Shown: one piece after another, positions 48,171 to 60,567 of the stretch
How positions within the stretch are numbered: position 1 is the stretch's first letter
How the letters are laid out: each line of letters starts with the position of its first letter
Origin: an uncultured bacterium
GTDB lineage: Bacteria > Bacillota > Clostridia > Christensenellales > CAG-917
NCBI GenBank assembly: GCA_949432885.1
Contig: CASQXY010000005.1
Location: 25,619-89,618 of the forward strand
Reading direction: 5' to 3'
DNA: 64,000 nt
Position numbers and translations under genes: made by a program
The notes under the pieces: generated by a model
What the model was told of the DNA's origin: nothing
Database searches by the model: none
Seen by the model: only the letters and a program-made list of their open reading frames with translations

Positions 48171-48196
48171 AAGAAAAAAGCCGAAGCAGGTCGGCT
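48171..48196 (-). terminator. Intrinsic terminator downstream of aroQ (end of the aro operon)
   Basis: Minus strand reads AGCCGA-cctgct-TCGGCT followed by TTTTTCTT. Confidence 0.6.
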
Positions 48197-48202
48197 TGAT
48201 TT

Positions 48203-48631
48203 TCAGTTTTTCGACAGGTATTCGATAGCCTCTTTGTAGCCCTCGAAGCCCTTTCCGCAAATCGTCTTTTGCGCCGCCAGCGATAAGTATGAAACGTGGC
48301 GGAACTCCTCTCTTGCCATTATATCGGTGAGGTGCACCTCGACTGTGGGAATATCCACGGATTTGAGCGCGTCGAGTATGGCGATTGAGGTATGCGTATA
48401 CGCTCCCGCGTTTATAACTATCCCGTCATAACTTCCAAATGCGCGCTGTATCGCCGTAACGATATCGCCCTCTCTGTTGGACTGTATTACAGTTGTTTTT
48501 ACGCCGATTTCCTTTGCGCAGGATTTTATATATTTCACAAGCTCCGCATAGGACTTTTTCCCGTACTTGTCAGGCTCGCGTATGCCGAGCATATTGAGGT
48601 TTACTCCGTTGATTACAAGGATTTTTTTCAT
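48203..48631 (-). CDS. aroQ: 3-dehydroquinate dehydratase, type II
   Basis: ILVINGVNLNMLGIREPDKYG and HISN-like region HLTDIMAREEFR. Confidence 0.93.
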   Translation of the reverse strand: MKKILVINGVNLNMLGIREPDKYGKKSYAELVKYIKSCAKEIGVKTTVIQSNREGDIVTAIQRAFGSYDGIVINAGAYTHTSIAILDALKSVDIPTVEVHLTDIMAREEFRHVSYLSLAAQKTICGKGFEGYKEAIEYLSKN

Positions 48632-49905
48632 ATTTCTCTCCCGATACTTTCCTCGAACGCAGCTATAACGCTATCGACCGCGCACTCGATTTTATCGTTA
48701 TTTTCAATCTCGACATCCGATGCCTGCATATAAAGCGGATATCTCGCGCCCGCAAGCCTCTTCACCTCGTCGAGGCTCTTGGAAAGCGGTCTGCCCGCCC
48801 TTGCGAGCTTATTTACGTCTCTGCTTATCGCCGCGCAAAAGCCGTTCGCCTTGAAAAAGAACCTGTTTCTCTCGTCGAGCACCGCGCCGCCGCCAGTCGC
48901 AATCACAGCTCCGAGTTTAAGACACGCCTTTTCAACCTCTCTTCGCTCTATTTCACGGAAATACGCCTCTCCGTCCTCCGCAAATATTTCGGGTATAGAC
49001 CTCCCCTCCGCTTTCTCGATTTCGCAGTCCGTGTCGACAAACTCTTTCCCGAGCTTTTTTGCAACCGATTTCCCGATTGTGGACTTTCCGCAGCCCGCCA
49101 TGCCGACGAGCACGATATTCGTTCTTTCGCGTATCAACGCCCTTGCCGCGCGCAAGGTTTTGTCCTCATCCGCGATTTGTCCCCCGACCTCAGACTGAAA
49201 AAGGTTGTGCGCAAGGCGCGCCTGCTCCACGAGCATATTCAGTCCGTTTGCGGCTTTCAGCCCCCTTTCTCTCGCGTCCCGCACAAGCAGGGTTTCGAGC
49301 GGATTGTAAATACAATCAAACACGCTTTCCAGTTTTGAATACTTCTTTATATTGAGAGGCTTTGCGTACGCATTCGGCGACATCCCGACGGGGGTCGTGT
49401 TGATTATCACCTGCGTATCCTGCAAATCGTAGCAGCTTTCGTAGTTGCACTCCCCGCTTCGGGATACGACGTTTACGCTCGCCGCGCCGGAAGTCGCGCA
49501 CAGATTTTTCGCAGTCTGACAGGTGCCGCCGCTTCCCAAAATGAGGATGTTTCTGCCACTAAGCTCTATGCCCGCCTTTCTCATAGCGTATTCCATTCCG
49601 CCTATATCCGTATTATATCCGACCAGTCTATCCCCGACCCTTACGACGGTGTTGACCGCGCCAATTTTCTCCGCTTCTTCGGACAGGCTATCCAGCATAG
49701 GAATTATGTCGCGCTTGTACGGAATCGTAACGTTGTAGCCCGCGTATTCTCCGCTTCTCACAAACACCGCAAGCGCGCCAGCGTCCGCAAGCTCTCTGAC
49801 GCCGTATCCGTCTCTTCCCAAAAGCGCGTGAATGCGCGGAGACAGCGTATGCGGCAGGCTCTTTCCGACAAGGCAGTATTTATTTCCGGATACGCCGCCC
49901 ATCAA
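48628..49905 (-). CDS. aroE: Bifunctional shikimate dehydrogenase / shikimate kinase (AroE-AroK fusion)
   Basis: The N-terminal half has GKSLPHTLSPRIH, NVTIPYK and ILGSGGT (SDH). The C-terminal 170 aa has IVLVGMAGCGKSTIGKSVAKKLGKEFVDTD (shikimate kinase P-loop). Confidence 0.88.
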   Translation of the reverse strand: MMGGVSGNKYCLVGKSLPHTLSPRIHALLGRDGYGVRELADAGALAVFVRSGEYAGYNVTIPYKRDIIPMLDSLSEEAEKIGAVNTVVRVGDRLVGYNTDIGGMEYAMRKAGIELSGRNILILGSGGTCQTAKNLCATSGAASVNVVSRSGECNYESCYDLQDTQVIINTTPVGMSPNAYAKPLNIKKYSKLESVFDCIYNPLETLLVRDARERGLKAANGLNMLVEQARLAHNLFQSEVGGQIADEDKTLRAARALIRERTNIVLVGMAGCGKSTIGKSVAKKLGKEFVDTDCEIEKAEGRSIPEIFAEDGEAYFREIERREVEKACLKLGAVIATGGGAVLDERNRFFFKANGFCAAISRDVNKLARAGRPLSKSLDEVKRLAGARYPLYMQASDVEIENNDKIECAVDSVIAAFEESIGREI

Positions 49906-51041
49906 AGCTCCTCGTACGCTCCTAGGAAGGAGAAATTCTCCGCCTTGGTCGCTATTTCCGCAATAAGATTCTGCACGCGCGTATCGCGCACGTCCGCGTC
50001 GAAATCGAAGTAGAAATTAAACTCGAACGGGCTGTCGGGTATGGGACGCGATTCCAGCTTGGTGAGGTTCAGCCCGAGCGCGGAAAATCTGTTGAGAAGT
50101 CTGTTCAGACTTCCGGCCTCGTGAGCGAGATTTGCGGTTATGCTTATCCTGTTCGCGCCCTCGTACACGCGCAGCTGTTTGGATATCACAATGAAGCGAG
50201 TATAATTGTTGTTGCTGTCGTTCACTCCCGCTTTAAGCGTTTTAAGTCCGTAAATATCCGCGCATTCCTTGGAGGATATGCACGCGATATCGTCCCTGCC
50301 GCTCTCGGCGACAATCTTCGCCGCGACCGCCGTATTGTCGCATCTCGTGATTTTGACGTCGCCGAGCTTTGCAATCAGCTCAGCGCACTGCGACAGCGCT
50401 TGGTCGTGGGAAACGATTTCCTTTACGCCGCTCAGCTCCGTTTCCTTTCTTGCAAGCAGATAGTGCTTCACTCTCAGCTTTATACCGCGCACGATACAGA
50501 ATTTATGTTTGAGCATTAGGTCATAAACGCCGATTACGCTCCCCACCGTACTGTTTTCGACGGGCAGAACTCCGAACTCGCAAAAGCCCTTTTCCACCGC
50601 AGAAAAAACGCCGTCCCAGTTACGGAAGCATGAAATGGACGGAATCTCAAACATCTTTTCCGCCGCTATACAGCTATATGCTCCGGGTATACCCTGACAC
50701 GCTACGCTCGCCTGAATCGGGAAAGGCTTCACGCCGTTTGCAAGCGCGGCGCGTATTTCGTCCTTTATCGGGGACTTGCAATCCATCACGCCGTACTGAT
50801 ACGCCTTGCTCGTCTCAAACAGAGTGCCGAAGACCTGCTTCGCATACAGTTTGAGTTCGTTCGGCATAGTCGCTGCAACCCTGCTCACGATTTGTTTCTC
50901 CCTTTCGACGTTCTCGACAGGCAATCCGTTTTCCGTCTTATCTTTGGCAACGTCAAGCGCAAGCTCCATACGCTTTACGTACAGCTTCGCAATCTCGTCA
51001 TCGATTTCGTCGATACGTTTTCTCACGTCCTGCAAATTCAT
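49902..51041 (-). CDS. pheA: Bifunctional chorismate mutase / prephenate dehydratase (P-protein, with C-terminal ACT)
   Basis: The CM helix is LQDVRKRIDEIDDEIAKLYVKRMELA. The PDT domain has ACQGIPGAYS and LPVENSTVGSV. The ACT region is ESRP. The ATG at 51041 has GAGGTGA upstream. Confidence 0.9.
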   Translation of the reverse strand: MNLQDVRKRIDEIDDEIAKLYVKRMELALDVAKDKTENGLPVENVEREKQIVSRVAATMPNELKLYAKQVFGTLFETSKAYQYGVMDCKSPIKDEIRAALANGVKPFPIQASVACQGIPGAYSCIAAEKMFEIPSISCFRNWDGVFSAVEKGFCEFGVLPVENSTVGSVIGVYDLMLKHKFCIVRGIKLRVKHYLLARKETELSGVKEIVSHDQALSQCAELIAKLGDVKITRCDNTAVAAKIVAESGRDDIACISSKECADIYGLKTLKAGVNDSNNNYTRFIVISKQLRVYEGANRISITANLAHEAGSLNRLLNRFSALGLNLTKLESRPIPDSPFEFNFYFDFDADVRDTRVQNLIAEIATKAENFSFLGAYEEL

Positions 51042-51122
51042 ATTCTCACCTCTATTTGACGCAAAATCAGAGTTTATCTGTTGATTTTGCACCATAATCA
51101 TTTGATTTGGTATTTCTTATAC

Positions 51123-52250
51123 CTATTTTATGTAAAGCTCTATGGCGTCTCTTATCTTCAAAGCCTCGTCGAGAAGCGCGAGCGCGACCGCGCTCTCCAC
51201 GCACGGCACCGCTCTCACCGCAATGCAGGAATCGTGCCTGCCCTTTATGCTGAGCTCGCATTCTTTCAATTCGGAAAGATTAACGGAGCGCTGAGGCTTT
51301 GATATCGACGGCGTAGGACGGAAAGCGACGGAAAGCGTGACCGCCATTCCGTTGGATATGCCTCCGTTTATTCCTCCACTCCTGTTTGTAAGAGTGCGCA
51401 CGCTTCCGTTTTCAAGAGTAAAGCAATCGTTCGCTCCGCTTCCCCGCATTTGCGAAAGTTCAAAGCCGCTTCCGAACTCCACCCCCTTCACCGCCGGTAC
51501 GGCGTAAACGGAATATGCGATCTTGCTCTCCAAGCCCTCGAACAGCGCGTCTCCGAACAAGCCCGCTTCGAGACCGCTCACAACGCATTCCACCACTCCG
51601 CCCACACTGTCGCCATCCGCGGCGGATACGCGAATCTCCTCCGTCAAGCGCTCGCGCGCGCTCTCGTCCAGCAAGGGTAAATCGCTGTCTTTTATACGAG
51701 CTTCGTCCTCCTCGCTCACTCCGCGCAAAGCGACGTCCGTCGAGGTCTTATAGCTCGCGCCCTGCGCTCCGCCAACGCTTGCGAGGTATGCGCACACGCG
51801 TATGCCCATGGTCTTTAAAAGCTCTTCCGCTATGCCTCCCGCTATGCAAAGAGGCGCGGTAAGCCTTCCCGAAAACCTTCCTCCGCCCGTTGAGATTTTC
51901 CCGTCCTTCGCGTATGCGGCATAATCCGCGTGCGAAGGTCTCGGCACGCATGCAACGCCGTCATAATCCTTAGGTCTGACGTTGCCGTTCTTTATGCGGA
52001 TATCGATTGTGCCGTCAACGGCGTAGCCCTCTTCCGCTCGTTTCAGTCCGCTTATTATGACGGGCTCGTCCTCTTCCTTTCTAGGCGTAGCCCAAACACC
52101 TCCGCGGCTCTTTCTCCTATCCAGCATGCGTTCGGCATCTTTCAAAGTAAGCTCAGTTCCGCGCGGAAGACCGCCCATTCTCACGCCTATCTCCTCGGCA
52201 TGGGACTCGCCGAATATTTCGATTTCCAATTTCTCGAAATTTGATTTCAT
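51123..52250 (-). CDS. aroC: Chorismate synthase
   Basis: FGESHAEEIGVRMGGLP, RPSHADY, GGRFSGR and GSGF. The start is set at the MKSNFEK ATG (52250); the 64-codon upstream extension is Arg-rich and overlaps aroA. Confidence 0.88.
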   Translation of the reverse strand: MKSNFEKLEIEIFGESHAEEIGVRMGGLPRGTELTLKDAERMLDRRKSRGGVWATPRKEEDEPVIISGLKRAEEGYAVDGTIDIRIKNGNVRPKDYDGVACVPRPSHADYAAYAKDGKISTGGGRFSGRLTAPLCIAGGIAEELLKTMGIRVCAYLASVGGAQGASYKTSTDVALRGVSEEDEARIKDSDLPLLDESARERLTEEIRVSAADGDSVGGVVECVVSGLEAGLFGDALFEGLESKIAYSVYAVPAVKGVEFGSGFELSQMRGSGANDCFTLENGSVRTLTNRSGGINGGISNGMAVTLSVAFRPTPSISKPQRSVNLSELKECELSIKGRHDSCIAVRAVPCVESAVALALLDEALKIRDAIELYIK

Positions 52251-52273
52251 ATCAGTACCGTCCTTATATCGCT

Positions 52274-53584
52274 TCAATCGATGTCGATATCCGCGCCCAA
52301 GCCTTTTACGTGCTCGATAAACGTCGGATAGGACTTGTTTATACACTCCGCTCCTTCGACAACGCTTTCGCCCTCCGTACAAAGAGCGTCGACAATAGCG
52401 CTCATAGCCATACGGTGGTCGCAAAAGCCGCTCGTCCTGCACGCTCCGTGCCGTCCGCCGTATATCGTCAGCACGTTGCCGCAGTACTCCGTCCTTATCC
52501 CGAAATCCGCAAGCATACTCATGACCGCCGCCAGTCTGTCGCTCTCCTTATCTCGGAGTCTGTCCACGCCGGCGATATGCGAAACTCCGTCCGCAAAGGA
52601 AAGCGCCGTCGCCATAATCGGCACTAAATCGGGGCAATGTCTGCAATCGAAGTCTATCGCGCGAAGTGCGCTCTTTCTTGCGATTACGCAGTCCTCCGAA
52701 ACGGAAATAGCCGCACCCGCTTCGCGCAGCAGCTCTACGACAACCCTGTCGCCCTGCCGCGAATGGGGATTGAGACCGTGCGCTTGCACTTCTCCCGTCA
52801 AAACTCCCAGCGCGAGCATGAAAGCGGCGGAAGACCAGTCACCCTCGACCTCCAAACTCTCGGGCGAATCGTACGCCTGATTTCCCTCGACGTAAAATCC
52901 GTCTTGCTCCTTTCGGATTCGTATTCCGAAGTCCTCAAGCACTCCTAGTGTAATATCCACGTAATTCGCAGACACAAGCTCTCCGCATATTCGTATACGG
53001 CTGTCGCCGTCGAGCAAAGGGAGCGCCATAAGCAGTCCCGTTATATACTGCGAGCTTACGCCTCCGTCTATTGTGTACAAGCCTGCCGTAAGTCTGCCCG
53101 AAACGCGCATAGGAAGCTGGGCTTCGCCCGTCCTATCAAACCTAGCGCCGTGCTCTTGCAGACAGTCCGTAAGTCCGCATATGGGTCTGTCTTTCAGTCT
53201 GCCTTCTCCCGTAATCACGCACTCGAAACCGAGAGCGCACGCAACGGGCAGCAAAAATCTTAAAGTTGAACCGCTCTCTCCCGCATTGAGCAAAGGCAGG
53301 GCGCATACGTCTTCCGCCGAGGATTTGCAAGCTCCGCAATTTGAACCGTTTTCGCAGGTCGCTTCGCCGCTTCCGCCGCCGCAAAGTCCGCGTCTGTACG
53401 CGCCTATTTTAGCCGACATAATTTTCAAACAGCTTTCTGTCGCCGCAGTATCCTTTCCGCCGTTTTCGAGCGTCATAAAATTACCCGAAAGAGCCGCGGC
53501 AATCATCATTCTGTGCGCCACGGACTTCGACGGAGGAATTTCAACGCTTCCGCATATTCGGGATTTTTTCACTCTTACATTCAT
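52274..53584 (-). CDS. aroA: 3-phosphoshikimate 1-carboxyvinyltransferase (EPSP synthase)
   Basis: PPSKSVAHRM, NAGESGSTLRFL, RLKDRP and DHRMAMS. Confidence 0.92.
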   Translation of the reverse strand: MNVRVKKSRICGSVEIPPSKSVAHRMMIAAALSGNFMTLENGGKDTAATESCLKIMSAKIGAYRRGLCGGGSGEATCENGSNCGACKSSAEDVCALPLLNAGESGSTLRFLLPVACALGFECVITGEGRLKDRPICGLTDCLQEHGARFDRTGEAQLPMRVSGRLTAGLYTIDGGVSSQYITGLLMALPLLDGDSRIRICGELVSANYVDITLGVLEDFGIRIRKEQDGFYVEGNQAYDSPESLEVEGDWSSAAFMLALGVLTGEVQAHGLNPHSRQGDRVVVELLREAGAAISVSEDCVIARKSALRAIDFDCRHCPDLVPIMATALSFADGVSHIAGVDRLRDKESDRLAAVMSMLADFGIRTEYCGNVLTIYGGRHGACRTSGFCDHRMAMSAIVDALCTEGESVVEGAECINKSYPTFIEHVKGLGADIDID

Positions 53585-53597
53585 AAACCCACGTTTA

Positions 53598-54641
53598 TCA
53601 TACGTTAATGTATCTTTTAAACTCGTTTATCGTCATTTTCTCGATTACGCAGCGTCCTATACCTTTATACAGAATTACGGAAATGCCGTCATTCCCCTCC
53701 GCCTTTTTGTCGAGCGCGAAATCGTCGGATATTTTGAGTTTTTCACATGACAGCCGCATCCCGTACTTATCCAGCAAGGACAGAATTCCGTCATAATCCG
53801 CACCGCCGATATCTCCGTGCTCCTTAGCGGCGCGCACCATAATCTCTATTCCGTTTGCAACGGCGACTCCGTGAGGAATTCGGAAATCACTCGCCTTTTC
53901 TATCGCGTGTCCGACGGTATGCCCGAAGTTGAGCAGTTTGCGCTTGCCGCCCTCCCTTTCGTCGGCGACGACTATATCCGCCTTGTACTTCGCGCAAAGC
54001 TCCGTAAACTCGCCGATATTTTCTTTGAGGTTTCCTTTGAGAATTTCCAGTATTCTTCCGCCCGAAAGGCACGCGTATTTTATCCCTTCGCCTATGCCGT
54101 TTTTCCATTCGTACTCCGGCAGAGTTTCAAGCGTCAGCTCGTCGACGACAACGGCTTTGGGCTGCCAAAATGCCCCGAGCAGGTTTTTACCCTGCGGCAA
54201 ATCCACGCCCGTCTTGCCGCCTATCGAGCTGTCAATCATTGCGAGCAAAGAGGTGGGCGCCTGCACTATATTTATTCCGCGCATATAAGTCGCCGCGGCA
54301 AAGCCCGCGAGGTCTCCGACAACTCCGCCGCCGAGAGCGACAACGACGTCAGTGCGTTTGAATCCGCAATTCGCAAGCATTCCGATTAAGGCAAAATAAC
54401 TCTCGGGCGTTTTGGATTTTTCCCCCGCAGGAATGACGTGTACAAACGGCTGTATTCCCTCCGCCGAAAGCGAAGCGGATACTCTTTCTCCGTAATGCCC
54501 GCGCACGTTTGTATCTGTCACGACAAGCGCCTTTTCCGCACGGGGAGAACGCTCCTTCACAATCTCGCCCGCGCGGTCTATTCCGCCTCGCGCAAAGATA
54601 ATCGGATATGCGGGATTTAGCTTCACAATATACTCTTTCAT
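53598..54641 (-). CDS. aroB: 3-dehydroquinate synthase
   Basis: ALGGGVVGDLAGFAA, GGKTGVDL and FGHTVGHAIE. The ATG at 54641 overlaps the tyrA stop as ATGA and has AAGGA 9 nt upstream. Confidence 0.92.
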   Translation of the reverse strand: MKEYIVKLNPAYPIIFARGGIDRAGEIVKERSPRAEKALVVTDTNVRGHYGERVSASLSAEGIQPFVHVIPAGEKSKTPESYFALIGMLANCGFKRTDVVVALGGGVVGDLAGFAAATYMRGINIVQAPTSLLAMIDSSIGGKTGVDLPQGKNLLGAFWQPKAVVVDELTLETLPEYEWKNGIGEGIKYACLSGGRILEILKGNLKENIGEFTELCAKYKADIVVADEREGGKRKLLNFGHTVGHAIEKASDFRIPHGVAVANGIEIMVRAAKEHGDIGGADYDGILSLLDKYGMRLSCEKLKISDDFALDKKAEGNDGISVILYKGIGRCVIEKMTINEFKRYINV

Positions 54642-55492
54642 TGTTTCCATTCCTTTTCCGCTTTTTCGGACTCCGTTTTGCACCGAGTGGAACGCATGAG
54701 AAACTCGCGCAAAGCGCTTTCATCCTTATCCGCCAAATACTTTCTAAGCTCCGCAAACCTTGACATAATATCGTCGATACAGGATATCAAATTGTCGCCG
54801 TTTTCCAGAAACAGCTCCGTCCACATATCGGCGTCCAACCTAGCCACGCGCGTCAAATCCTTGAAGCTCCCTGCGGAGTATCCCGCGTGCGCGGACGAAA
54901 GCGGATTCTGCACGTAACAGCCCGAAGTCGCGTGCGCGAGCTGAGAGGTATATGCAATCATTCTGTCATGCTCTTCCGCTCCGGCATATTGAATACCCCT
55001 CGCGCCGACGTCCGTAAACATATCTGTCACAATTTGGCGCCTAAGCGAATCGCAATTTACGTTGACGATTATGACATACGCGTCCGCGAACAAATCTGGC
55101 GTGGAGTTGTCATAACCGCCGAACTCCTTCCCTGCCATGGGGTGTACAGATATAAAGTGCAAATTCGGACAGTATTCCGCAATCTCGCGCATGCCGTCTG
55201 CGACAAATCTTTTTACGCCGCAGATATCAGCAACAATAGCCCCGTCTTTAAGCCTAGGGCATATCCTGCGCATCTCGTCAATCGCGGCTTTGGGCCGCAA
55301 AGCGAATACGACCATATCCACCGTTTTGAAATCGCCGTCTGCAAGCGCGCGGGTGAACGCTTTATCGGCGGAAGCCTTTTCGAGCACGCACACGTCCATA
55401 TCCAAGCCGTATACCTCGTGCGAAGTATACTTCATCAGCGCCTTTGCAAGCGACGCGCCCATAAGCCCCATTCCGACAATGCCTATTTTCAT
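54638..55492 (-). CDS. tyrA: Prephenate dehydrogenase
   Basis: MKIGIVGMGLMGASLAKAL (Rossmann fold), HPMAG and GSFKDLTRVA. Confidence 0.9.
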   Translation of the reverse strand: MKIGIVGMGLMGASLAKALMKYTSHEVYGLDMDVCVLEKASADKAFTRALADGDFKTVDMVVFALRPKAAIDEMRRICPRLKDGAIVADICGVKRFVADGMREIAEYCPNLHFISVHPMAGKEFGGYDNSTPDLFADAYVIIVNVNCDSLRRQIVTDMFTDVGARGIQYAGAEEHDRMIAYTSQLAHATSGCYVQNPLSSAHAGYSAGSFKDLTRVARLDADMWTELFLENGDNLISCIDDIMSRFAELRKYLADKDESALREFLMRSTRCKTESEKAEKEWKQ

Positions 55493-56505
55493 CAGTCAAG
55501 CTCCTTTCCCACAACGGGCAGCATCCTGCCGACGCAATCCACCACGTCCGCAAACTGTTCGGGACGAAGTGACTGCGCTCCGTCGCACAGCGCGTGCGGC
55601 GGGTCGTTGTGCACCTCTATGATAAGGCCGTCCGCGCCCGCTCCGACCGCGGCGAGGCTCATGGGCTTTACGAATCTGGAAATACCGAGCGCGTGGGAGG
55701 GGTCGACGATTACGGGCAAGTGCGTGCGCTCCCTGAGCACGGGGATAGCGGACAAATCCAGCGTATTTCTCGTATACGTCTCGTAAGTCCTTATGCCGCG
55801 CTCGCAGAGTATGACGTTGGGGTTGCCCTCCGACATAATGTACTCCGCGCTCATAAGCCACTCCTCGACGGTCGCGGCAATTCCGCGCTTCAAGAGGATG
55901 GGCGTTTTCAGCTTTCCGAGCTTTTTGAGCAAGTCGAAGTTCTGCATATTGCGCGCCCCGACCTGCATAACGTCAACGCCCTCGAAATCGTCTATATGCT
56001 CCTCGCTCATAATCTCGGTGACTATGGGCATTCCCGTCTCCGCCTTCGCCTTTTTAAGCAGTTTCAAACCGTCAACACCCATTCCCTGAAAGGAATAGGG
56101 AGAGGTGCGCGGCTTAAACGCTCCGCCGCGAAGCAGAGTCGCGCCCGCCCTTTTGACGGCCTCTGCGACATCGATAATCTGCTTTTCGCTCTCGATGGAG
56201 CACGGACCCGCTATAATCTGAAAATGCCCTCCGCCGAACTTATGTCCGCCCACGTCGATAACGGAATCCTGCGGATGAAACTTGCGGTTTACGTTTTTGT
56301 AGGGCTCCTGCACTCTCGTCACATTCTCCACGATATCGAGAGTACGCACAAGGTCTATATCCACCTTGGACGTATCGCCCACAAGCCCGACTATGGTGGA
56401 GTTTTCGCCCTCGCTGATATGCACGCCGAGCCCCAGCCCCTTTATCCAATTGATAAGATTGTCAACCTGCGTTTTTTCCTGATTTTTTTTGATTACGACT
56501 ATCAT
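55492..56505 (-). CDS. aroF: 3-deoxy-7-phosphoheptulonate (DAHP) synthase, type I-beta with N-terminal ferredoxin-like regulatory domain
   Basis: IAGPCSIES, GATLLRGGAFKPRTSPYSFQG and IVDPSHA. There is a 65-aa N-terminal extension as in the Thermotoga-type enzyme. SD GAAGAGGA lies upstream. Confidence 0.92.
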   Translation of the reverse strand: MIVVIKKNQEKTQVDNLINWIKGLGLGVHISEGENSTIVGLVGDTSKVDIDLVRTLDIVENVTRVQEPYKNVNRKFHPQDSVIDVGGHKFGGGHFQIIAGPCSIESEKQIIDVAEAVKRAGATLLRGGAFKPRTSPYSFQGMGVDGLKLLKKAKAETGMPIVTEIMSEEHIDDFEGVDVMQVGARNMQNFDLLKKLGKLKTPILLKRGIAATVEEWLMSAEYIMSEGNPNVILCERGIRTYETYTRNTLDLSAIPVLRERTHLPVIVDPSHALGISRFVKPMSLAAVGAGADGLIIEVHNDPPHALCDGAQSLRPEQFADVVDCVGRMLPVVGKELD

Positions 56506-56598
56506 ATATCCTCTTCGCGCAATAACGCGCTTTTTTGTCTTTATTTATAGATAATATAACATTAAGTATATTATCGCAAGAAAAGAGCGTCTTATTAT

Positions 56599-56625
56599 AA
56601 AAAAACCGACACCGTTAGGTGTCGG
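56599..56625 (-). terminator. Intrinsic terminator within the aro operon leader (attenuator)
   Basis: Minus strand reads CCGACACC-taac-GGTGTCGG followed by TTTTTTT, 94 nt upstream of the aroF ATG. Confidence 0.8.
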
Positions 56626-56658
56626 GACTATCCGCTTTTTCCGCACACCTGAACGCAA

Positions 56659-56718
56659 CTACGCTTTGTAGCCGAAGTAAAAGTAAAATGCGAAAAACTT
56701 GTTGAATTTCTTTTCCAT
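56659..56718 (-). CDS. Candidate aro operon leader peptide MEKKFNKFFAFYFYFGYKA (19 aa, 6 Phe + 3 Tyr)
   Basis: Hand translation gives ATG GAA AAG AAA TTC AAC AAG TTT TTC GCA TTT TAC TTT TAC TTC GGC TAC AAA GCG TAG. It is too short for the ORF track. It lies between a promoter-like element and the attenuator terminator. Confidence 0.65.
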   Translation of the reverse strand: MEKKFNKFFAFYFYFGYKA

Positions 56719-56724
56719 ACGATA

Positions 56725-56753
56725 AGTGTACAGTCAGCCGCGCCTTTTGTCAA
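56725..56753 (-). promoter_or_regulatory. Candidate promoter of the aro operon
   Basis: Minus strand reads TTGACA-17 nt-TACACT. The -10 element ends 6 nt before the leader ATG. Confidence 0.45.
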
Positions 56754-56814
56754 CACGAAATTTGAGCATTATCCGCGTTCGGCATAAAAACTATACTCGG
56801 CTTGCGCTCATTCG

Positions 56815-56843
56815 TTGACATGCTAAATACTCGGTCATATAAT
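56815..56843 (+). promoter_or_regulatory. Sigma-70-type promoter of the FMN-riboswitch/ribU unit
   Basis: TTGACA-17 nt-TATAAT, 14 nt upstream of the riboswitch. Confidence 0.6.
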
Positions 56844-56856
56844 TCTTATATCAAAA

Positions 56857-56976
56857 TTCTTTGGATAGGGGAAACCCAACCGGTGGTAATGCCGCAATGC
56901 GGACGAGCCCAACAGCCCCAACAGCCGATATGGTGAGATTCCATAGCCGCCTGTCAAGTCAGACTGGGAAAGAGTT
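56857..56976 (+). promoter_or_regulatory. FMN riboswitch (RFN element)
   Basis: TTCTTTGGATAGGGGAAACCCAACCGGTGGTA...GAGCCCAACAGC...GATATGGTGAGATTCCATAGCCGCCTGTCAAGTCAGACTGGGAAAGAG matches the RFN consensus blocks (AGGG-GAAA-CCC, ACCGGYGGTA, AGCCC, GGTGAnATTCC, AGCCGACAGT-AAGTCnGGA, GGGAAAGA). Confidence 0.85.
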
Positions 56977-57081
56977 TGTCATAAACGCCTGCCTACGCGC
57001 AAGGGTATTTTCGTATTGCATACGCAAGCAGTATGCAAATCCTTACATATCCAAACGCCGACTTTGCGTTATGCCATTCTT

Positions 57082-57107
57082 TCTCCGCCGAAAACGGAGA
57101 TTTTTTT
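57082..57107 (+). terminator. Riboswitch expression platform: terminator hairpin that also sequesters the SD
   Basis: TCTCCG-ccgaaaa-CGGAGA followed by TTTTTTT, immediately before the ATG at 57108. The 3' arm contains the only SD (GGAGA). Confidence 0.7.
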
Positions 57108-57740
57108 ATGAAGGAACAAAGCAGAAAAAAAGCAACCTCACACGTTTCACAAAAAGCCTTGCGCTTTACGACAAGAGCCGTCGCCTACACTGCGCTGATG
57201 ACGGCGCTCGTATACGTGGGCACGCTCGTAGGATATTCGGGCAACCTTTTTTACTTCAACCTAGGAGACTCGGTTATCCTCATCGCCGCGGCGCTTTTGG
57301 GACCCGTATCGGGTGCGATTGCCGGAGGGCTCGGCGCATTCCTCGGCGATTTGACGGTTTATCCTGTCACAATGCTGTTCACACTCGCGATAAAGTTTAT
57401 CGAAGGACTTGCGGCGGGTTTGCTGTTCAGGATAATTTACAAAAAATACGACAAATGCGTCTGCGTTCCCGAAGATGAGCGCGGAGCGGACTATCCCCTG
57501 CTCAAACGCAAGGCGGATGTTCTGAAAATCGTTTTCTCCTGCCTCGCGGGACTCCTGTCGACGGCGATAATGTTCGTAGGATATTTCATTTGCCAGACCT
57601 TTATGTACGGCACGTACGCGGGCGCGATTGTCGCGCTTCCTTTCGACGTAGCGCAGGGTGTGATTTCAACCGCAGTCGCAATTCTGTGCTTATACGCTCT
57701 GAAACTCGAAAATTTCAGATATAAACTCAAAAACAAATAG
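57108..57740 (+). CDS. ribU: ECF transporter S component, riboflavin-type (RibU-like)
   Basis: A 210-aa protein with 5-6 TM segments, preceded by an FMN riboswitch: TALMTALVYVGTLV, NLGDSVILIAAALLGPVSGAIAGGLGAFLGDL. The start is set at the MKEQSRKK ATG. Confidence 0.75.
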   Translation: MKEQSRKKATSHVSQKALRFTTRAVAYTALMTALVYVGTLVGYSGNLFYFNLGDSVILIAAALLGPVSGAIAGGLGAFLGDLTVYPVTMLFTLAIKFIEGLAAGLLFRIIYKKYDKCVCVPEDERGADYPLLKRKADVLKIVFSCLAGLLSTAIMFVGYFICQTFMYGTYAGAIVALPFDVAQGVISTAVAILCLYALKLENFRYKLKNK

Positions 57741-57812
57741 GAAGCCCGAAGACCTCCTATTTACAAACTGTATTACGTTTTATAATTATAACGCTATAAT
57801 CGTCTTGCCGAT

Positions 57813-58343
57813 TTATTTCGCCGTGCCGTAAACGCTTCCTCCATTGCGGTCTACGGCTACTATGAGCGGAAAATCTTCTATGCAAAATTTATATATCGCC
57901 TCCGTGCCAAGCTCGGGATAAGCAATAAGCTCCGAGTGCTTTATACAGTCGGCGTACATTGCGCCCGCACCGCCTATCGCCGCGAAATACACTCCGCCGT
58001 TTCTCCCGATAGCGCGATACACTTCTTCGTTTCTGTCTCCCTTGCCTATGCTCGCGGCAAGCCCGCTGTCATAAAGCGAGGGAGCGTATTTATCCATTCT
58101 CATAGCGGTAGTCGGACCTGCGGAAATAGGTTCGCCGTCCTTGAAGCACGCGCCTACGTAATATATCGCCTGTCCGTCAAGAGGAATGGGCAACTCCGCT
58201 TTGCTTGCTAACCCCTCGAAAAGTCTTTTATGCGCCGCGTCTCTCGCGGTGTATATAGTGCCTGAGAGCAGAACTCTGTCCCCCGCCCGTAATGAAGCCA
58301 GCTCATTTCTGTCAAACGGCGCGTTTACTCTTTTCCAATCCAT
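57813..58343 (-). CDS. Class I (Fe-S) fumarate hydratase, beta subunit (C-terminal domain type)
   Basis: LRAGDRVLLSGTIYTARDAAHKRL, GPTTAMRMD and AIGGAGA. Confidence 0.88.
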   Translation of the reverse strand: MDWKRVNAPFDRNELASLRAGDRVLLSGTIYTARDAAHKRLFEGLASKAELPIPLDGQAIYYVGACFKDGEPISAGPTTAMRMDKYAPSLYDSGLAASIGKGDRNEEVYRAIGRNGGVYFAAIGGAGAMYADCIKHSELIAYPELGTEAIYKFCIEDFPLIVAVDRNGGSVYGTAK

Positions 58344-58403
58344 AATCCTTCCCTTTTATGCCGCCTCCTCGGCAATACGTTTGTCAACGCAAGTATGGCA
58401 TAA

Positions 58404-59240
58404 TCACAGCGCGGTTTTTGCGACCCTCACCGCGTTGCACTGTATATTCACCGCGACGGGAAGCGCCGATATATGCGTGGGATATTTCCCGATATGAACC
58501 GCAAACGCCGTCGTGTCGCCCGAAAAGCCCTGTGCTCCTATTCCGAGCGCATTTATCTCTGATAGCAGCTCACTTTCTAGCGCGGCGAGTGTTTCGTCCT
58601 CGCTGGGCGCGCCCACCTCTCTTAGCAGCTGTTCCTTTGCGGTGAGCATAGCCTTTTCCGCCGTGCCGCCTATCCCGACGCCGACCACAATGGGCGGACA
58701 GGGGTTGGAGCCCGCCGCCTTCACCGCTTCGACAACGCAACGCTTTACGCCGTCCATCCCCTCGGACGGGGTGAGCATATACAGCTTGGACATATTCTCG
58801 CTTCCGAAGCCCTTAGGCATAAACGCGATTTCAAGCCCGTCTCCGCCCACAATCTCAACGTGCAGAACCGCGGGAGTATTGTCCCCCGTGTTCACTCTCG
58901 TAATCGGGTCGAGCACGCTCGCGCGGTAGCCGTGCCTTGCATATCCGCGGCGTACGCCTTCGCCGACGGCGTCCGAAAGCGTTCCGCCCTCGATATGCAC
59001 GTCCTGTCCGAGCCTGACAAATACGACCGCCATGCCCGTGTCCTGACAGACGGGAAGCCCTCTCCGCTTCGCCACCTCGGCGTTTTCGAGGAGAGTTTGA
59101 AGCGCGAACTTCGCATTTTCGTTGCGTTCCTTTTCGTATGCGGCTCTCATCGCTCCGACGCATGACGGCGTAAGCGCGCCGCAAGCCTCCGTAAGCGAGC
59201 ACACAGCTTCTGAGATTTTTTCGCAGTTTATAGTTTTCAT
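58404..59240 (-). CDS. Class I (Fe-S) fumarate hydratase, alpha subunit (N-terminal domain type)
   Basis: PVCQDTGMAVVFV, GFGSENMS and CPPIVVGVGIGGTAE. The start is set at the MKTINCEK ATG (59240). Confidence 0.88.
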   Translation of the reverse strand: MKTINCEKISEAVCSLTEACGALTPSCVGAMRAAYEKERNENAKFALQTLLENAEVAKRRGLPVCQDTGMAVVFVRLGQDVHIEGGTLSDAVGEGVRRGYARHGYRASVLDPITRVNTGDNTPAVLHVEIVGGDGLEIAFMPKGFGSENMSKLYMLTPSEGMDGVKRCVVEAVKAAGSNPCPPIVVGVGIGGTAEKAMLTAKEQLLREVGAPSEDETLAALESELLSEINALGIGAQGFSGDTTAFAVHIGKYPTHISALPVAVNIQCNAVRVAKTAL

Positions 59241-59397
59241 ATTCGATATTATACCTCTTTTGCCGCCGATTTTCAATACATTTTGCGCACACGGTTGTCT
59301 TACGGCGCGCTTTGTAGTAAACTTATCCTTAATCAAAGCTATATTTATGCCGCCGAAATGTTCACAATCCGCACGGCATAAAACTCACGGAGAAAGC

Positions 59398-60567
59398 ATG
59401 GACTATCAAAAAACTTCGCTTGAAAAGCATTATGAATGGCGCGGAAAGCTGGAAGTGACCGCACGCGCAAAGGTGAACGACAAGGACGCTCTGTCCCTTG
59501 CGTACACGCCGGGAGTCGCAGCGCCCTGTCTCGCCATAAAGGACAACCCCTCGCTGTCCTATTCACTTACGCGTCGCTGGAATACGGTGGCGGTGATTAC
59601 GGACGGTTCCGCCGTGCTCGGTCTCGGCAATATAGGTCCGCTCGCAGGGATGCCCGTCATGGAAGGCAAATGCGTTCTGTTTAAGGAATTTGCGGATATC
59701 GACGCAATCCCCATATGCCTCGACACTCAAGACGTGGACGAAATCGTGGCGGCTATACGCGCAATATCTCCCAGCTTCGGAGGGATTAACCTAGAAGATA
59801 TTTCCGCCCCGAGATGCTTCGAGGTGGAACGCAGGCTCAAAGAGCTCTGCGATATTCCAGTCTTTCACGACGACCAGCACGGCACGGCAATCGTACTCGT
59901 TGCCGCGCTTAAAAACGCACTTAAACTTGTCAAAAAGCCTATTTCAACCGCGCGTTTAGTCATAAACGGCGCGGGAAGCGCAGGAATTGCAATCGCGCAG
60001 TTTCTGCTGAATATAGGCGCAAAAGACATTGTGGTTTGCGACAGACTCGGCATAATCGAAGACTGCTGCAGCTTCAATCCCGCTCAACGCGAGCTTGCAA
60101 ACCGCACCAATCCGCGCAAGGTGCGCGGCACGCTTGCGGATGCGGTACGAGGAGCGGACGCCTTCATTGGCGTAAGCGTAAAGGACGCGCTTTCGCAAGA
60201 AATGGTGCGCAGTATGGCAAGCGAGGCGATTGTGTTCGCAATGGCGAATCCGTCTCCCGAAATCATGCCAGACAAGGCGCTAGAAGCGGGAGCGAGAATT
60301 GTCGCTACGGGCAGGAGCGACCTGCCCAATCAAATAAACAACGTACTCGCTTTCCCGGGAATTTTCAGAGGCGCGCTGGATGTGCGCGCAAGTGTGATAA
60401 ACGAGCATATGAAAATCGCCGCCTCCGAAGCGCTCGCCTCTCTTGTAAGCGACGTGGAGCTCTGCGACACCTATATTCTTCCCAAAGCATTCGACGGCAG
60501 AGTTGCCGCCGCGGTGGCGAAAGCCGTTGCGGACGCGGCGCGCGCCGACGGAGTCGCAAAAATTTGA
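59398..60567 (+). CDS. maeB: NAD(P)-dependent malic enzyme (short, about 390 aa form)
   Basis: [49 protein letters not shown] and [12 protein letters not shown]. The ATG at 59398 has GGAGA upstream; the 92-codon extension in the ORF track overlaps the fumarase gene on the other strand. Confidence 0.92.

Follow-up and report, generated by a model that had tools for sequence, protein, structure and literature searches.

The locus studied here raises the question of whether a short open reading frame crowded with codons for aromatic amino acids governs the aromatic biosynthesis operon that follows it and, if so, by which mechanism. Control of aromatic genes in Firmicutes is generally ascribed to T-boxes and TRAP. 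In the window, i.e., the whole 64,000-nucleotide stretch of DNA that was analyzed, the operon occupies positions 48203-56505 of the minus strand and consists, according to Pfam matches and ORF layout, of aroF (56505-55492), tyrA, aroB, aroA, aroC, pheA, an aroE/aroK fusion, and aroQ. The eight products were identified by Pfam as DAHP synthase, prephenate dehydrogenase, DHQ synthase, EPSP synthase, chorismate synthase, CM-PDT-ACT, shikimate dehydrogenase/kinase, and type II dehydroquinase, respectively, and a terminator-like hairpin with a T-run directly after aroQ (48178-48197, minus strand) marks the end of the operon. No trp genes were found among the Pfam matches of the downstream genes from aroF to aroQ, in agreement with a first-pass annotation of this DNA, which had described an operon containing pheA and tyrA and lacking trp genes. 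The operon covers the common shikimate pathway together with exactly the Phe and Tyr branches, and this content matches the codons of the leader.

We propose that expression of the aroF–aroQ operon is set by a ribosome-mediated (leader-peptide) attenuator, which would respond to the availability of charged tRNA-Phe and tRNA-Tyr; the probability that we assign to this reading is about 0.82. The first-pass annotation had pointed to such a mechanism, and every one of its coordinates and sequences proved to be correct, base for base. Its structural claims stood for the most part, with the amendments described below.

The leader ORF and its candidate promoter

The leader ORF is located on the minus strand at 56659-56718, 153 nt upstream of aroF and on the same strand, and encodes MEKKFNKFFAFYFYFGYKA in 19 codons followed by TAG. 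From 56718 to 56659, the codons read ATG GAA AAG AAA TTC AAC AAG TTT TTC GCA TTT TAC TTT TAC TTC GGC TAC AAA GCG TAG. Codons 8-17 (56668-56697, minus strand) form the putative regulatory run FFAFYFYFGY with five Phe and three Tyr codons, i.e., eight aromatic residues out of ten, and the leader contains no Trp codon. When ORFs of 8-45 codons were surveyed on both strands of the 64-kb window, no other had at least seven aromatic residues out of ten, and ten block-shuffled versions of the window contained no ORF with at least eight of ten. The ATG is the sole plausible start, since no ATG, GTG, or TTG is present between it and the in-frame TGA located 18 nt upstream.

A promoter scan identified a candidate promoter, P1, immediately before the ORF (56725-56753, minus strand; 10 of 12 positions), in which the -35 element TTGACA (56753-56748) and the -10 element TACACT (56730-56725) are separated by a 17-nt spacer. 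The end of the -10 element lies 6 nt (tatcgt) from the leader ATG, which is not preceded by an SD, the best anti-SD duplex being +0.7 kcal/mol. The A of this ATG (56718) is the predicted transcription start, and the mRNA would be leaderless if transcription begins there.

The possibility of a leaderless start, raised already in the first-pass annotation, gains support from comparison within the clade of the window. The arrangement TTGACA-17-TAnnnT-6/7 nt-ATG, without an SD, is present in all ten distinct clade sequences, with a gap between the -10 element and the ATG of 6 nt (7 nt in one), and the spacer sequences have diverged. Anti-SD energies in the clade lie between -5.5 and +2.4 kcal/mol, with all such matches falling in promoter DNA. 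Since this promoter-ATG spacing without an SD is kept in ten relatives, it supports leaderless translation as the probable mode of initiation for the leader ORF of the clade. If this is true, transcription and translation would begin at the same nucleotide, and the ribosome and RNA polymerase would be coupled from the first base, in what would be a minimal attenuator. What counts against a leaderless start is that leaderless mRNAs look rare in Clostridia, as judged from C. difficile alone, the only species of the class with mapped starts that was considered, in which six such mRNAs are known. Leaderless leader peptides have been reported in Deinococcus deserti (PMC4007540), and leaderless polycysteine sORFs have been reported in mycobacteria (10.1101/834739). 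These sensory uORFs resemble the element of the window in having no SD, in being rich in codons for the product of the downstream genes, and, as predicted for the window, in being placed at the 5' end of the transcript. However, they occur in phyla with abundant leaderless mRNAs, whereas the leaderless start in the window is predicted from promoter geometry alone, and the mycobacterial sORFs act on translation by RBS sequestering instead of through an intrinsic terminator.

Proposed attenuator RNA and mechanism

The leader RNA comprises four segments and a U-tract, all on the minus strand. Segment 1, UUUUUCGCAU..ACUU (56681-56697), lies inside the Phe/Tyr codons and pairs with segment 2 in the MFE and centroid folds. 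Segment 2, AGGUGUGCGGAAAA (56637-56650), begins 8 nt past the stop codon (spacer 56658-56651) and has segment 1 or segment 3 as alternative partners according to the folds, the pair counts, and inverted repeat I5; its pairing with segment 3 constitutes the antiterminator, of which the 5' arm is AGGTGTGCGG at 56650-56641 and the partner CCCGACACCT at 56626-56617. Segment 3, CCGACACCU (56617-56625), serves both as the 3' arm of the antiterminator and as the 5' arm of the terminator. Segment 4, GGUGUCGG (56613-56606), followed by the U7 tract (56605-56599; 56599-56613 in total), forms with segment 3 an intrinsic terminator of -13.7 kcal/mol, which reads CCGACACC(56625-56618)-TAAC-GGTGTCGG(56613-56606)-T7(56605-56599) and contains eight pairs, six of them G-C, in a terminator scan. 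An inverted-repeat finder independently recovered the arms of the terminator (I6) as well as those of the antiterminator (I5, 56617-56627 with 56640-56650), and the fold of the leader has a z-score of -3.4 relative to 200 shuffles, none of which was as good.

Folding reproduced the mutually exclusive antiterminator and terminator that had been described previously; however, the earlier description missed a strong 1:2 hairpin (56697-56681 with AGGUGUGCGGAAAA at 56650-56637), the addition of which completes the classical four-segment design. The fold obtained is that of a full four-segment attenuator, with the U-tract present. In the free leader RNA, the combination of the 1:2 and 3:4 hairpins is the minimum-energy state (-35.5 kcal/mol). 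When a ribosome footprint was placed on the aromatic codons and segment 4 had not yet been made, all eight bases of the terminator 5' arm paired upstream at -11 to -15 kcal/mol. A ribosome at the stop codon had been claimed to cover the antiterminator arm, and this is partly correct: the antiterminator is weakened from -11.1 to -6.4 kcal/mol but not abolished, and because segment 2 begins 8 nt beyond the stop codon, no more than about two bases at the start of the arm are masked. The same folding pattern was obtained in eight of nine clade members. At about -11 kcal/mol, the antiterminator is less stable than the terminator (-13.7 kcal/mol), so that on these modeled energies it must win kinetically. 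The locus combines a short leader ORF, a cluster of cognate codons, an intrinsic terminator, an antiterminator that shares a strand with it, and a 1:2 hairpin over the regulatory codons, i.e., the sequence and structural features that characterize a leader-peptide attenuator.

The analysis shows the features of the sequence and the alternative folds predicted for it, together with the conservation of both; the transcription start site, translation of the ORF, ribosome stalling, and the physiological response are inferred, and the switch could operate as follows. Transcription would start from P1, with the A of the leader ATG as its probable first nucleotide, and translation would be initiated on the leaderless 5'-AUG. 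If either Phe-tRNA or Tyr-tRNA runs short, the ribosome would stall in codons 8-17 and cover segment 1, leaving segment 2 free to pair with segment 3 once the latter has been transcribed; the resulting antiterminator would hold the 5' arm of the terminator, and RNA polymerase would read through into aroF. When Phe and Tyr are plentiful, the ribosome would get to the UAG, clip the start of segment 2, and then be released, so that segment 2 would be masked in part, or drawn back by segment 1 into the 1:2 hairpin, and the 3:4 terminator would end transcription at the U7 near 56599. Termination under these conditions probably relies also on re-formation of the 1:2 hairpin after ribosome release, since the ribosome at the stop codon weakens the antiterminator without abolishing it. 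In the absence of translation, the default would be termination, because the 1:2 and 3:4 hairpins together are the state of lowest energy for the untranslated RNA.

Conservation of the RNA structure within the clade

The structure was compared in nine distinct clade members, the AroF proteins of which are 82-97% identical to that of the window. All three helices are kept, with 85-93% of cells paired vs 27-53% when the arms were slid, and the mutual exclusivity of the two hairpins is conserved as well. For the terminator, 93% of cells are paired and two pairs show compensatory changes (A-U to G-C and C-G to U-A). The 1:2 hairpin is 90% paired (35-50% when slid) and includes four pairs with changes on both sides, and its covariation score was matched by only 2 of 500 shuffles. 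The antiterminator is 85% paired vs 31-53% when slid, a value that is an underestimate, since the MAFFT alignment places the antiterminator arm of one sequence (L001) one base out of register; folded with RNAfold, L001 has an antiterminator that is shifted but longer (13 bp). The compensatory changes anticipated in both hairpins are present in the terminator; the antiterminator displays one double change (A-U to C-G), and among these nine related sequences its covariation is not above the shuffle control. The substitutions found in segment 3 are all A to G or C to U, and each of the substituted bases still pairs with both segments 2 and 4.

A generic test on 46 diverse loci, in which the terminator 5' arm was fixed and the upstream RNA was shuffled, gave a mean energy z-score of -0.5; the paired fraction of the terminator arm was 0.68 in the stalled state, 0.37 for a ribosome on the stop codon, and 0.52 after the upstream RNA had been shuffled. 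As this test discriminates weakly, the clade alignment is relied on for the antiterminator. A covariance model built from the nine clade leaders (R1) recovered the clade at 74-123 bits and yielded weak matches, often correctly placed, among other aroF leaders (17-30 bits, E 4e-4 to 1). Thus, the architecture is common to the wider set of aroF leaders, for which no homology of the RNA itself can be demonstrated.

Leader ORFs in other lineages

Of ~150 related loci, about half have a mini-ORF rich in Phe and Tyr upstream of aroF, which supports the Phe/Tyr leader peptide of the first-pass annotation. With the 300 nt upstream of aroF as the search region, a mini-ORF in which at least seven of ten residues are aromatic was found in 40 of 79 species-level genome loci, compared to 0/79 in antisense and 1/395 in shuffled sequences, and 40 of 72 metagenome loci had a mini-ORF score of at least 6. 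The metagenome scan with AroF gave no relative closer than 72% identity, and close relatives were collected through a protein search, which gave roughly 100 AroF clusters at 75% identity or more, and through their contigs. In some of the close relatives (AroF 87-92% identical), the leader is missing altogether.

The leader peptides of the relatives diverge in sequence and length and share their composition. In the best 10-residue windows of 80 distinct peptides, Phe and Tyr occur almost equally often (F 291, Y 290, W 7), and both synonymous codons are used for each (TTT 247, TTC 44, TAC 163, TAT 127). Aromatic residues number 588 in the frame of the ORF, compared to 141 and 115 in the remaining frames. 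A composition that is kept, combined with a peptide sequence that is free, is the signature of a codon sensor and not of a functional peptide. Since an SD at -6 kcal/mol or better precedes the mini-ORF in most relatives (56 of 87, all from other clades), their ORFs are likely to be translated. In nearly all relatives with a mini-ORF, an intrinsic terminator is located 15-55 nt past the stop codon, before aroF.

Alternative explanations

AT-rich intergenic DNA commonly has short ORFs and hairpins, and the leader could in principle be a functionless chance ORF beside an unrelated terminator. The probability of this is negligible: nothing comparable is present in the rest of the window or in the shuffles, the sense counts in relatives greatly exceed the antisense and shuffled controls, and the fold z-score of -3.4 is accompanied by three conserved helices, and the comparative data have effectively refuted it already. 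A different proposition is that of an independent small gene for a trans-acting sRNA or small hydrophobic peptide, in which case aroF would be transcribed mainly from a promoter-like element downstream and the link to aromatic supply would be indirect or absent. The promoter, a transcript of ~120 nt, and the terminator do make up a complete unit, and the attenuator RNA rnTrpL and the leader peptide peTrpL of Sinorhizobium are known to act in trans. Furthermore, the promoter scan, the inverted-repeat search, and the comparison of relatives revealed an AT-rich promoter-like element, TTGCGA-17-TATTAT, between the terminator and aroF (56550-56579, minus strand), which is overlapped by a perfect inverted repeat, GATAATATA-N8-TATATTATC, and could represent a second promoter or an operator; it might drive transcription that bypasses the attenuator. 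However, this element, kept in three clade members (L168, L169, and L171) and partly in a fourth (L163), is absent in four others (L001, L002, L174, and L175) that nevertheless have the leader. In addition, about half of ~150 diverse loci have the unit directly upstream of aroF and in the orientation of that gene, the composition of the peptide is conserved and its sequence is not, and an antiterminator competing with the terminator is conserved. An independent small gene is thus considered unlikely, although a role in trans could exist on top of the role in cis.

The same RNA switch might also be operated by a factor acting in trans, either an RNA-binding protein that recognizes the UUU/UAC repeats in a TRAP-like manner or an uncharged tRNA, with the ORF being incidental. 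The U/A/C-rich repeats offer a possible binding motif, and T-box or protein-mediated antitermination is common for aromatic genes in Firmicutes, including the aroF T-boxes of two Erysipelotrichaceae loci. Against this, neither a T-box nor any other Rfam family was found at this locus, even at E up to 10, and the aromatic run always lies inside a frame with a start and a stop codon. That frame is preceded by an SD in the majority of relatives examined, and the promoter sits exactly at the ATG in the clade of the window. The aromatic codons are concentrated in the ORF frame, both Phe and both Tyr synonymous codons are used, and the peptide sequence is free apart from its composition. We therefore regard control by a trans-acting factor as very improbable.

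Implications for aromatic control in Clostridia

The ribosome-mediated attenuator proposed for the window would use a known mechanism, that of E. coli pheL and C. glutamicum aroR, and belong to a family in gut Clostridia that appears to be undescribed; the literature searched contained no description of a Phe/Tyr leader family upstream of aroF in Clostridia. On a broader scale, we see even odds that dual-sensing Phe/Tyr leader attenuators are the main control of the aroF operon among the Clostridia of gut and rumen (including Oscillospiraceae, Acutalibacteraceae, Lachnospiraceae, and relatives), with the clade of the window being leaderless; such attenuators may also explain the premature termination event in the aroF 5' UTR of C. 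difficile, which has remained unexplained. Hundreds of genomes of gut, rumen, and termite-gut Clostridia would thereby gain a regulatory feature in intergenic DNA that is now blank, and the evidence for classical leader-peptide attenuation outside Proteobacteria and Actinobacteria would grow. The geometry of a promoter placed at the ATG would provide a natural test case for leaderless translation in Clostridia, and the cis element, if responsive to Phe and Tyr, could be used as a biosensor part. Aromatic amino acids from gut Clostridia feed host-relevant metabolites. The conceptual gain is modest because the mechanism itself is textbook knowledge.

Relation to known systems

The E. coli pheL-pheA attenuator, which is the Rfam family Phe_leader (RF01859) and has a leader peptide of 15 residues, resembles the element of the window in its short ORF with dense aromatic codons, its 1:2/2:3/3:4 design, its intrinsic terminator, and, as proposed for the window, its control of a chorismate mutase-prephenate dehydratase gene through the supply of charged tRNA. 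However, pheL contains Phe codons only, has an SD-led start, serves a single gene, and belongs to gamma-proteobacteria, whereas the clostridial element uses Phe and Tyr equally, precedes the common pathway and both branches, has no SD, and is not matched by the Rfam model.

The closest functional precedent, as judged by description, is the aroR leader of C. glutamicum, which encodes Phe-Tyr-Phe and has been shown experimentally to attenuate the aroF operon (Neshat et al. 2014, in PMC11802643). Ribosome stalling on this leader raises transcription, and a response to Phe but not to Tyr is reported (PMC11802643). Both elements consist of a leader peptide with Phe/Tyr codons directly upstream of the DAHP synthase gene; aroR differs in being actinobacterial and in having only the Phe-Tyr-Phe triplet, compared to eight aromatic residues of ten in the window and equal use of Phe and Tyr in the family. 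Likewise, uORFC-13-1 of Acholeplasma is a predicted uORF found exclusively upstream of aroF, for which the same mechanism has been proposed (Brewer et al. 2021, PMC8632094). It shares the promoter boxes, the Phe-coding U-runs, and the adjacent intrinsic terminator. However, it has an RBS, at least one Phe codon, and 24 representatives that come only from Acholeplasma and environmental sequences; the element of the window, set apart from it by description, has no RBS, a long F/Y run, and a wider set of counterparts across Clostridia.

Database searches matched none of the known leader families to this element. A cmscan against Rfam 15 of positions 54000-60000 at E up to 10 returned no leader family, including Phe_leader (RF01859) and T-box (RF00230), and neither a leader family nor a T-box was detected in the whole window at the gathering score. 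In eleven relatives scanned at E up to 1, nothing was found over the leader, and the scans took in 31 related loci overall. A CRISPR-DR33 match (E = 0.5) on the strand opposite the terminator was attributed to chance. In a search that took peptides of at least 20 residues, the leader peptides of ten relatives (20-37 aa) had no match in NCBIfam and Pfam at E up to 10.

The lack of a T-box core noted in the first-pass annotation was confirmed by Rfam, for which two Erysipelotrichaceae loci (L059 and L076) served as positive controls, with T-boxes of 124-125 bits upstream of aroF. These T-boxes occupy the same position as the clostridial leader, likewise decide between a terminator and an antiterminator, and take tRNA charging as their signal; however, a T-box senses uncharged tRNA by RNA-tRNA contact and requires no translation. 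Since orthologous aroF genes in neighboring lineages use either device, the T-box and the leader peptide appear to be interchangeable.

Leader organization and chance controls

The element 5' of the aroF operon is best described as a predicted Phe/Tyr-sensing leader-peptide transcription attenuator. On the minus strand, a promoter matching at 10 of 12 positions in a pattern scan (-35 TTGACA, 56753-56748; 17-nt spacer; -10 TACACT, 56730-56725) is followed by tatcgt and the leader ORF (56718-56659), which reads ATG GAA AAG AAA TTC AAC AAG TTT TTC GCA TTT TAC TTT TAC TTC GGC TAC AAA GCG TAG and encodes MEKKFNKFFAFYFYFGYKA. Beyond the stop codon lie ttgcgttc, AGGTGTGCGG (56650-56641), aaaaagcggatagt, and the terminator CCGACACC-taac-GGTGTCGG (56625-56606), for which the scan reports eight pairs, six of them G-C, and a T-run (T7, 56605-56599); an AT-rich gap of 93 nt then leads to the aroF ATG at 56505. 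Since no ATG, GTG, or TTG occurs between the leader ATG and an in-frame TGA 18 nt 5' of it, the ATG at 56718 is the sole plausible start. All coordinates of the first-pass annotation proved correct on re-reading the sequence, and its statement that this ATG lacks a Shine-Dalgarno (SD) sequence holds, the best anti-SD duplex being +0.7 kcal/mol.

When all ORFs 8-45 codons long were compared across the two strands of the 64-kb window, seven or more aromatic residues per 10 occurred in the leader ORF alone; the runner-up has six, and none with at least eight appeared in ten block-shuffled windows. The predicted folding energy of the leader RNA is -37.6 kcal/mol, versus -26.5 +/- 3.2 kcal/mol for its shuffles (z = -3.4), and 0 of 200 shuffles were as good.

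Alternative RNA structures

In the predicted folds, segment 1 (UUUUUCGCAU...ACUU, 56697-56681), located inside the Phe/Tyr codons, forms a 14 bp helix with segment 2, the antiterminator 5' arm (AGGUGUGCGGAAAA, 56650-56637); a small inner hairpin of this 1:2 structure contains the stop codon. The alternative partner of segment 2 is segment 3 (CCGACACCU, 56625-56617), through 9 bp with one bulged G (-11.1 kcal/mol), and the terminator (-13.7 kcal/mol) has segment 3 as its 5' arm. Two inverted repeats found independently of folding by an inverted-repeat search, I5 and I6, agree with the antiterminator and terminator arms. The ribosome footprint was imposed as a hard folding constraint, the blocked stretch reaching 13 nt beyond the first A-site nucleotide. 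The free RNA folds into the 1:2 hairpin plus the terminator (-35.5 kcal/mol); with a ribosome on an aromatic codon and segment 4 unmade, 8 of 8 terminator-arm bases enter the antiterminator (-11 to -15 kcal/mol).

The attenuator reading of the first-pass annotation is supported with two amendments. Its antiterminator and terminator are reproduced by folding, and the 1:2 hairpin, which it had missed, has to be added to its two-hairpin switch. Its proposal that a ribosome at the stop codon covers the antiterminator arm stands in part: the antiterminator is weakened to -6.4 kcal/mol, but just about two bases of segment 2 are masked by a terminating ribosome because the stop codon lies 8 nt from that segment. 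Re-formation of the 1:2 hairpin after ribosome release would be a more robust route to termination, which is the same classical logic as in trp and pheL. As modeled, the leader structure is a complete four-segment attenuator.

Structural conservation in the clade

A protein search returned many AroF clusters at 75-100% identity, whose contigs gave 17 loci; together with the related loci L001 and L002, these provided nine distinct leaders alignable with that of the window (AroF 80-97% identical), and the more distant L177 was kept as a tenth clade sequence. The following pair counts come from nine related sequences only, with a structure taken from a member of the alignment itself. In the terminator, 93% of cells are paired, compared with 27-50% when the 3' partner is slid by 1-3 columns, and there are two double (compensatory) changes (A-U to G-C in L163, C-G to U-A in L175). 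The antiterminator is paired in 85% of cells (31-53% slid), with one double change (A-U to C-G in L163) and several U-A to U-G changes, its covariation over the nine sequences not rising above the shuffle control. The 1:2 hairpin is paired in 90% (35-50% slid), and four of its pairs show double changes, with a covariation score matched by 2 of 500 shuffles. Substitutions in segment 3 are all A to G or C to U; each either still finds a U or G opposite it in segments 2 and 4, or is compensated in segment 4 and forms a wobble with segment 2. Under ribosome masking, 8 of 9 clade leaders fold into the same three states, and the antiterminator of L001 is shifted but longer (13 bp).

A covariance model built from the nine leaders (R1) scores clade members at 74-123 bits and other aroF leaders at 17-30 bits; thus, the wider set shares the architecture, and RNA-level homology is not demonstrable for it. 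Two clade leaders are dominated by Tyr, L177 (644-769, MINQILATEYYYYYYCLNKKQ) and L175 (574-700, MKTMIFTKKSSAYYYYEGYAS), and the balance of Phe and Tyr sensing would therefore shift between species. The leader has been wholly lost in two sets of close relatives, whose AroF is 87% and 92% identical. At L165, L166, and L173 (upstream of 801), which have no F/Y ORF, a fumarase C-terminal gene lies directly 5', replacing ribU, and the 194 nt available for L167 contain another terminator-like hairpin (CACAC...GTGTG-T7) and no aromatic ORF.

Leader peptides in wider relatives

For a genome scan of AroF relatives with one genome per species, the best 80 loci (58-83% identity) were kept, and the 300 nt 5' of aroF were searched on the sense strand. 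Mini-ORFs with at least 7/10 aromatic residues were found at 40 of 79 loci from this set and those with at least 5/10 at 55, versus 0 and 7 of 79 on the antisense strand and 1 and 23 of 395 shuffles; F/Y-rich mini-ORFs thus recur at about half of the related loci. A metagenome scan gave mini-ORFs with at least 6/10 at 40 of 72 loci. The peptides (e.g., MKKFFFTATYFYYYFCFFFTSNSSLCC, MLCKTNATAYSFFYFYFYFNEK, MFAFAYFYFYFYFKV..., MINQILATEYYYYYYCLNKKQ) vary in length and sequence, and composition is the conserved property. The best 10-residue windows of 80 distinct peptides contain 291 F, 290 Y, and 7 W, encoded for F and Y by TTT (247), TTC (44), TAC (163), and TAT (127), and aromatic residues number 588 in the ORF frame versus 141 and 115 in the alternative frames. 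An SD (-6 kcal/mol or lower) is present for 56 of 87 mini-ORFs, and an intrinsic terminator lies 15-55 nt 3' of the mini-ORF, ahead of aroF, in nearly all. Judged from sequence, such a pattern marks a codon sensor and not a functional peptide or a protein-binding RNA repeat.

The hosts, as labelled, are mostly Clostridia (Oscillospiraceae, Acutalibacteraceae, Lachnospiraceae, Angelakisella, Pseudoflavonifractor, Lawsonibacter, Anaerovoracaceae), with a few MAGs labelled Lentisphaerae or Kiritimatiellae. In two Erysipelotrichaceae MAGs, the orthologous aroF is instead directly preceded by a full T-box (L059 2232-2465, L076 2213-2442; 124-125 bits), so the T-box search had its positive control; a T-box in one lineage and an F/Y leader in others at the same position looks like sensor exchange. 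Weaker mini-ORFs mixing Y, W, and F (e.g., MRHNIRASYVTYYGWTRFMSAGFAQVA) lie 5' of aroF at L064, L077, and L061, labelled among them as Bacteroides sp. CAG:927, Barnesiella, and one Oscillospiraceae MAG; these may be attenuators of another type, one that includes Trp.

Probable leaderless start

TTGACA, exactly 17 nt, TAnnnT, and then ATG after 6 nt (7 nt in L002) recur in 10 of 10 distinct clade sequences, none of which has an SD, and the spacer and gap sequences differ among them; for L168 and L169, the exact spacing is obtained from an additional ATG-AAT, in frame and 5' of the first-picked ATG. At sigma-70-type promoters, transcription usually starts about 7 nt 3' of the -10 hexamer, and the predicted start therefore falls on the A of the leader ATG. 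This conserved geometry favors the leaderless start that the first-pass annotation had considered possible, and translation from a leaderless mRNA is probable for the clade of the window. Because other clades use SD-led starts, the arrangement is a clade-specific variant. Leaderless leader peptides have been predicted in Deinococcus deserti (14 cases; PMC4007540), and polycysteine leaderless sORFs were shown experimentally in mycobacteria (10.1101/834739); in C. difficile, the sole Clostridia species with mapped starts, just six leaderless mRNAs are reported.

Relation to known systems

The proposed mechanism matches that of E. coli pheL-pheA. The closest precedent is C. glutamicum aroR-aroF, in which Phe limitation was shown to raise transcription of the aroF operon through a Phe-Tyr-Phe leader peptide (PMC11802643). 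A predicted uORF motif 5' of aroF in Acholeplasma, uORFC-13-1, combines Phe codons with a terminator (PMC8632094), and among Firmicutes the first leader peptides noted were those for His in bacilli. No matching family was found for the leader in Rfam 15, or for the leader peptides of ten relatives in NCBIfam and Pfam, and in the literature searched no F/Y leader is described for Clostridia; the family is widespread there and apparently unannotated. A transcriptome map of C. difficile 630 records premature termination in an aroF 5' UTR "lacking similarity to conserved riboregulators", which might be a member. The mechanism itself is no surprise to specialists; worth reporting are how widely the family occurs in Firmicutes, that it uses Phe and Tyr codons equally, and that the leaderless geometry is conserved.

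Operon and neighborhood

Eight tightly packed genes follow the leader on the same strand: aroF (DAHP synthase with a ferredoxin-like regulatory domain), tyrA (prephenate dehydrogenase), aroB (3-dehydroquinate synthase), aroA (EPSP synthase), aroC (chorismate synthase), pheA (chorismate mutase-prephenate dehydratase-ACT), aroE/K (shikimate dehydrogenase/kinase fusion), and aroQ (type II dehydroquinase). The operon therefore makes chorismate, Phe, and Tyr and contains no trp genes, bearing out the earlier claim of Phe and Tyr branches without trp; no Trp codon occurs in the leader, although chorismate from the operon also feeds Trp. Directly 3' of aroQ, the terminator-like hairpin AAGCCGACCTGCTTCGGCTT (48178-48197) marks the end of the operon; its T-run is on the minus strand, the scan lists the plus strand too, and it may terminate transcription in both directions.

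Between the terminator and aroF, a conserved, promoter-like AT-rich element (TTGCGA-17-TATTAT, 56550-56579, minus strand) overlaps a perfect 9-bp inverted repeat, GATAATATA-N8-TATATTATC. It could be a second promoter bypassing the attenuator or a transcription-factor operator; similar sequence occurs in L168, L169, L171, and partly L163, and is absent from the clade members L001, L002, L174, and L175.

Upstream and divergent, an FMN riboswitch (56852-56979, plus strand; 64.5 bits, E = 2.4e-13, slightly below the gathering score of 66.2) has its own perfect promoter (TTGACA-17-TATAAT, 56815-56843) and terminator (57082-57100), both on the plus strand, and precedes a gene for an ECF riboflavin transporter S component, which probably starts at an internal ATG near 57108, not at the ORF start 57033. 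The leader promoter consequently sits in a divergent intergenic region, unfed by any upstream gene, a layout shared by several relatives. Proteins identical to AroF occur in the MAGs GCA_949447015.1 and GCA_948818175.1.
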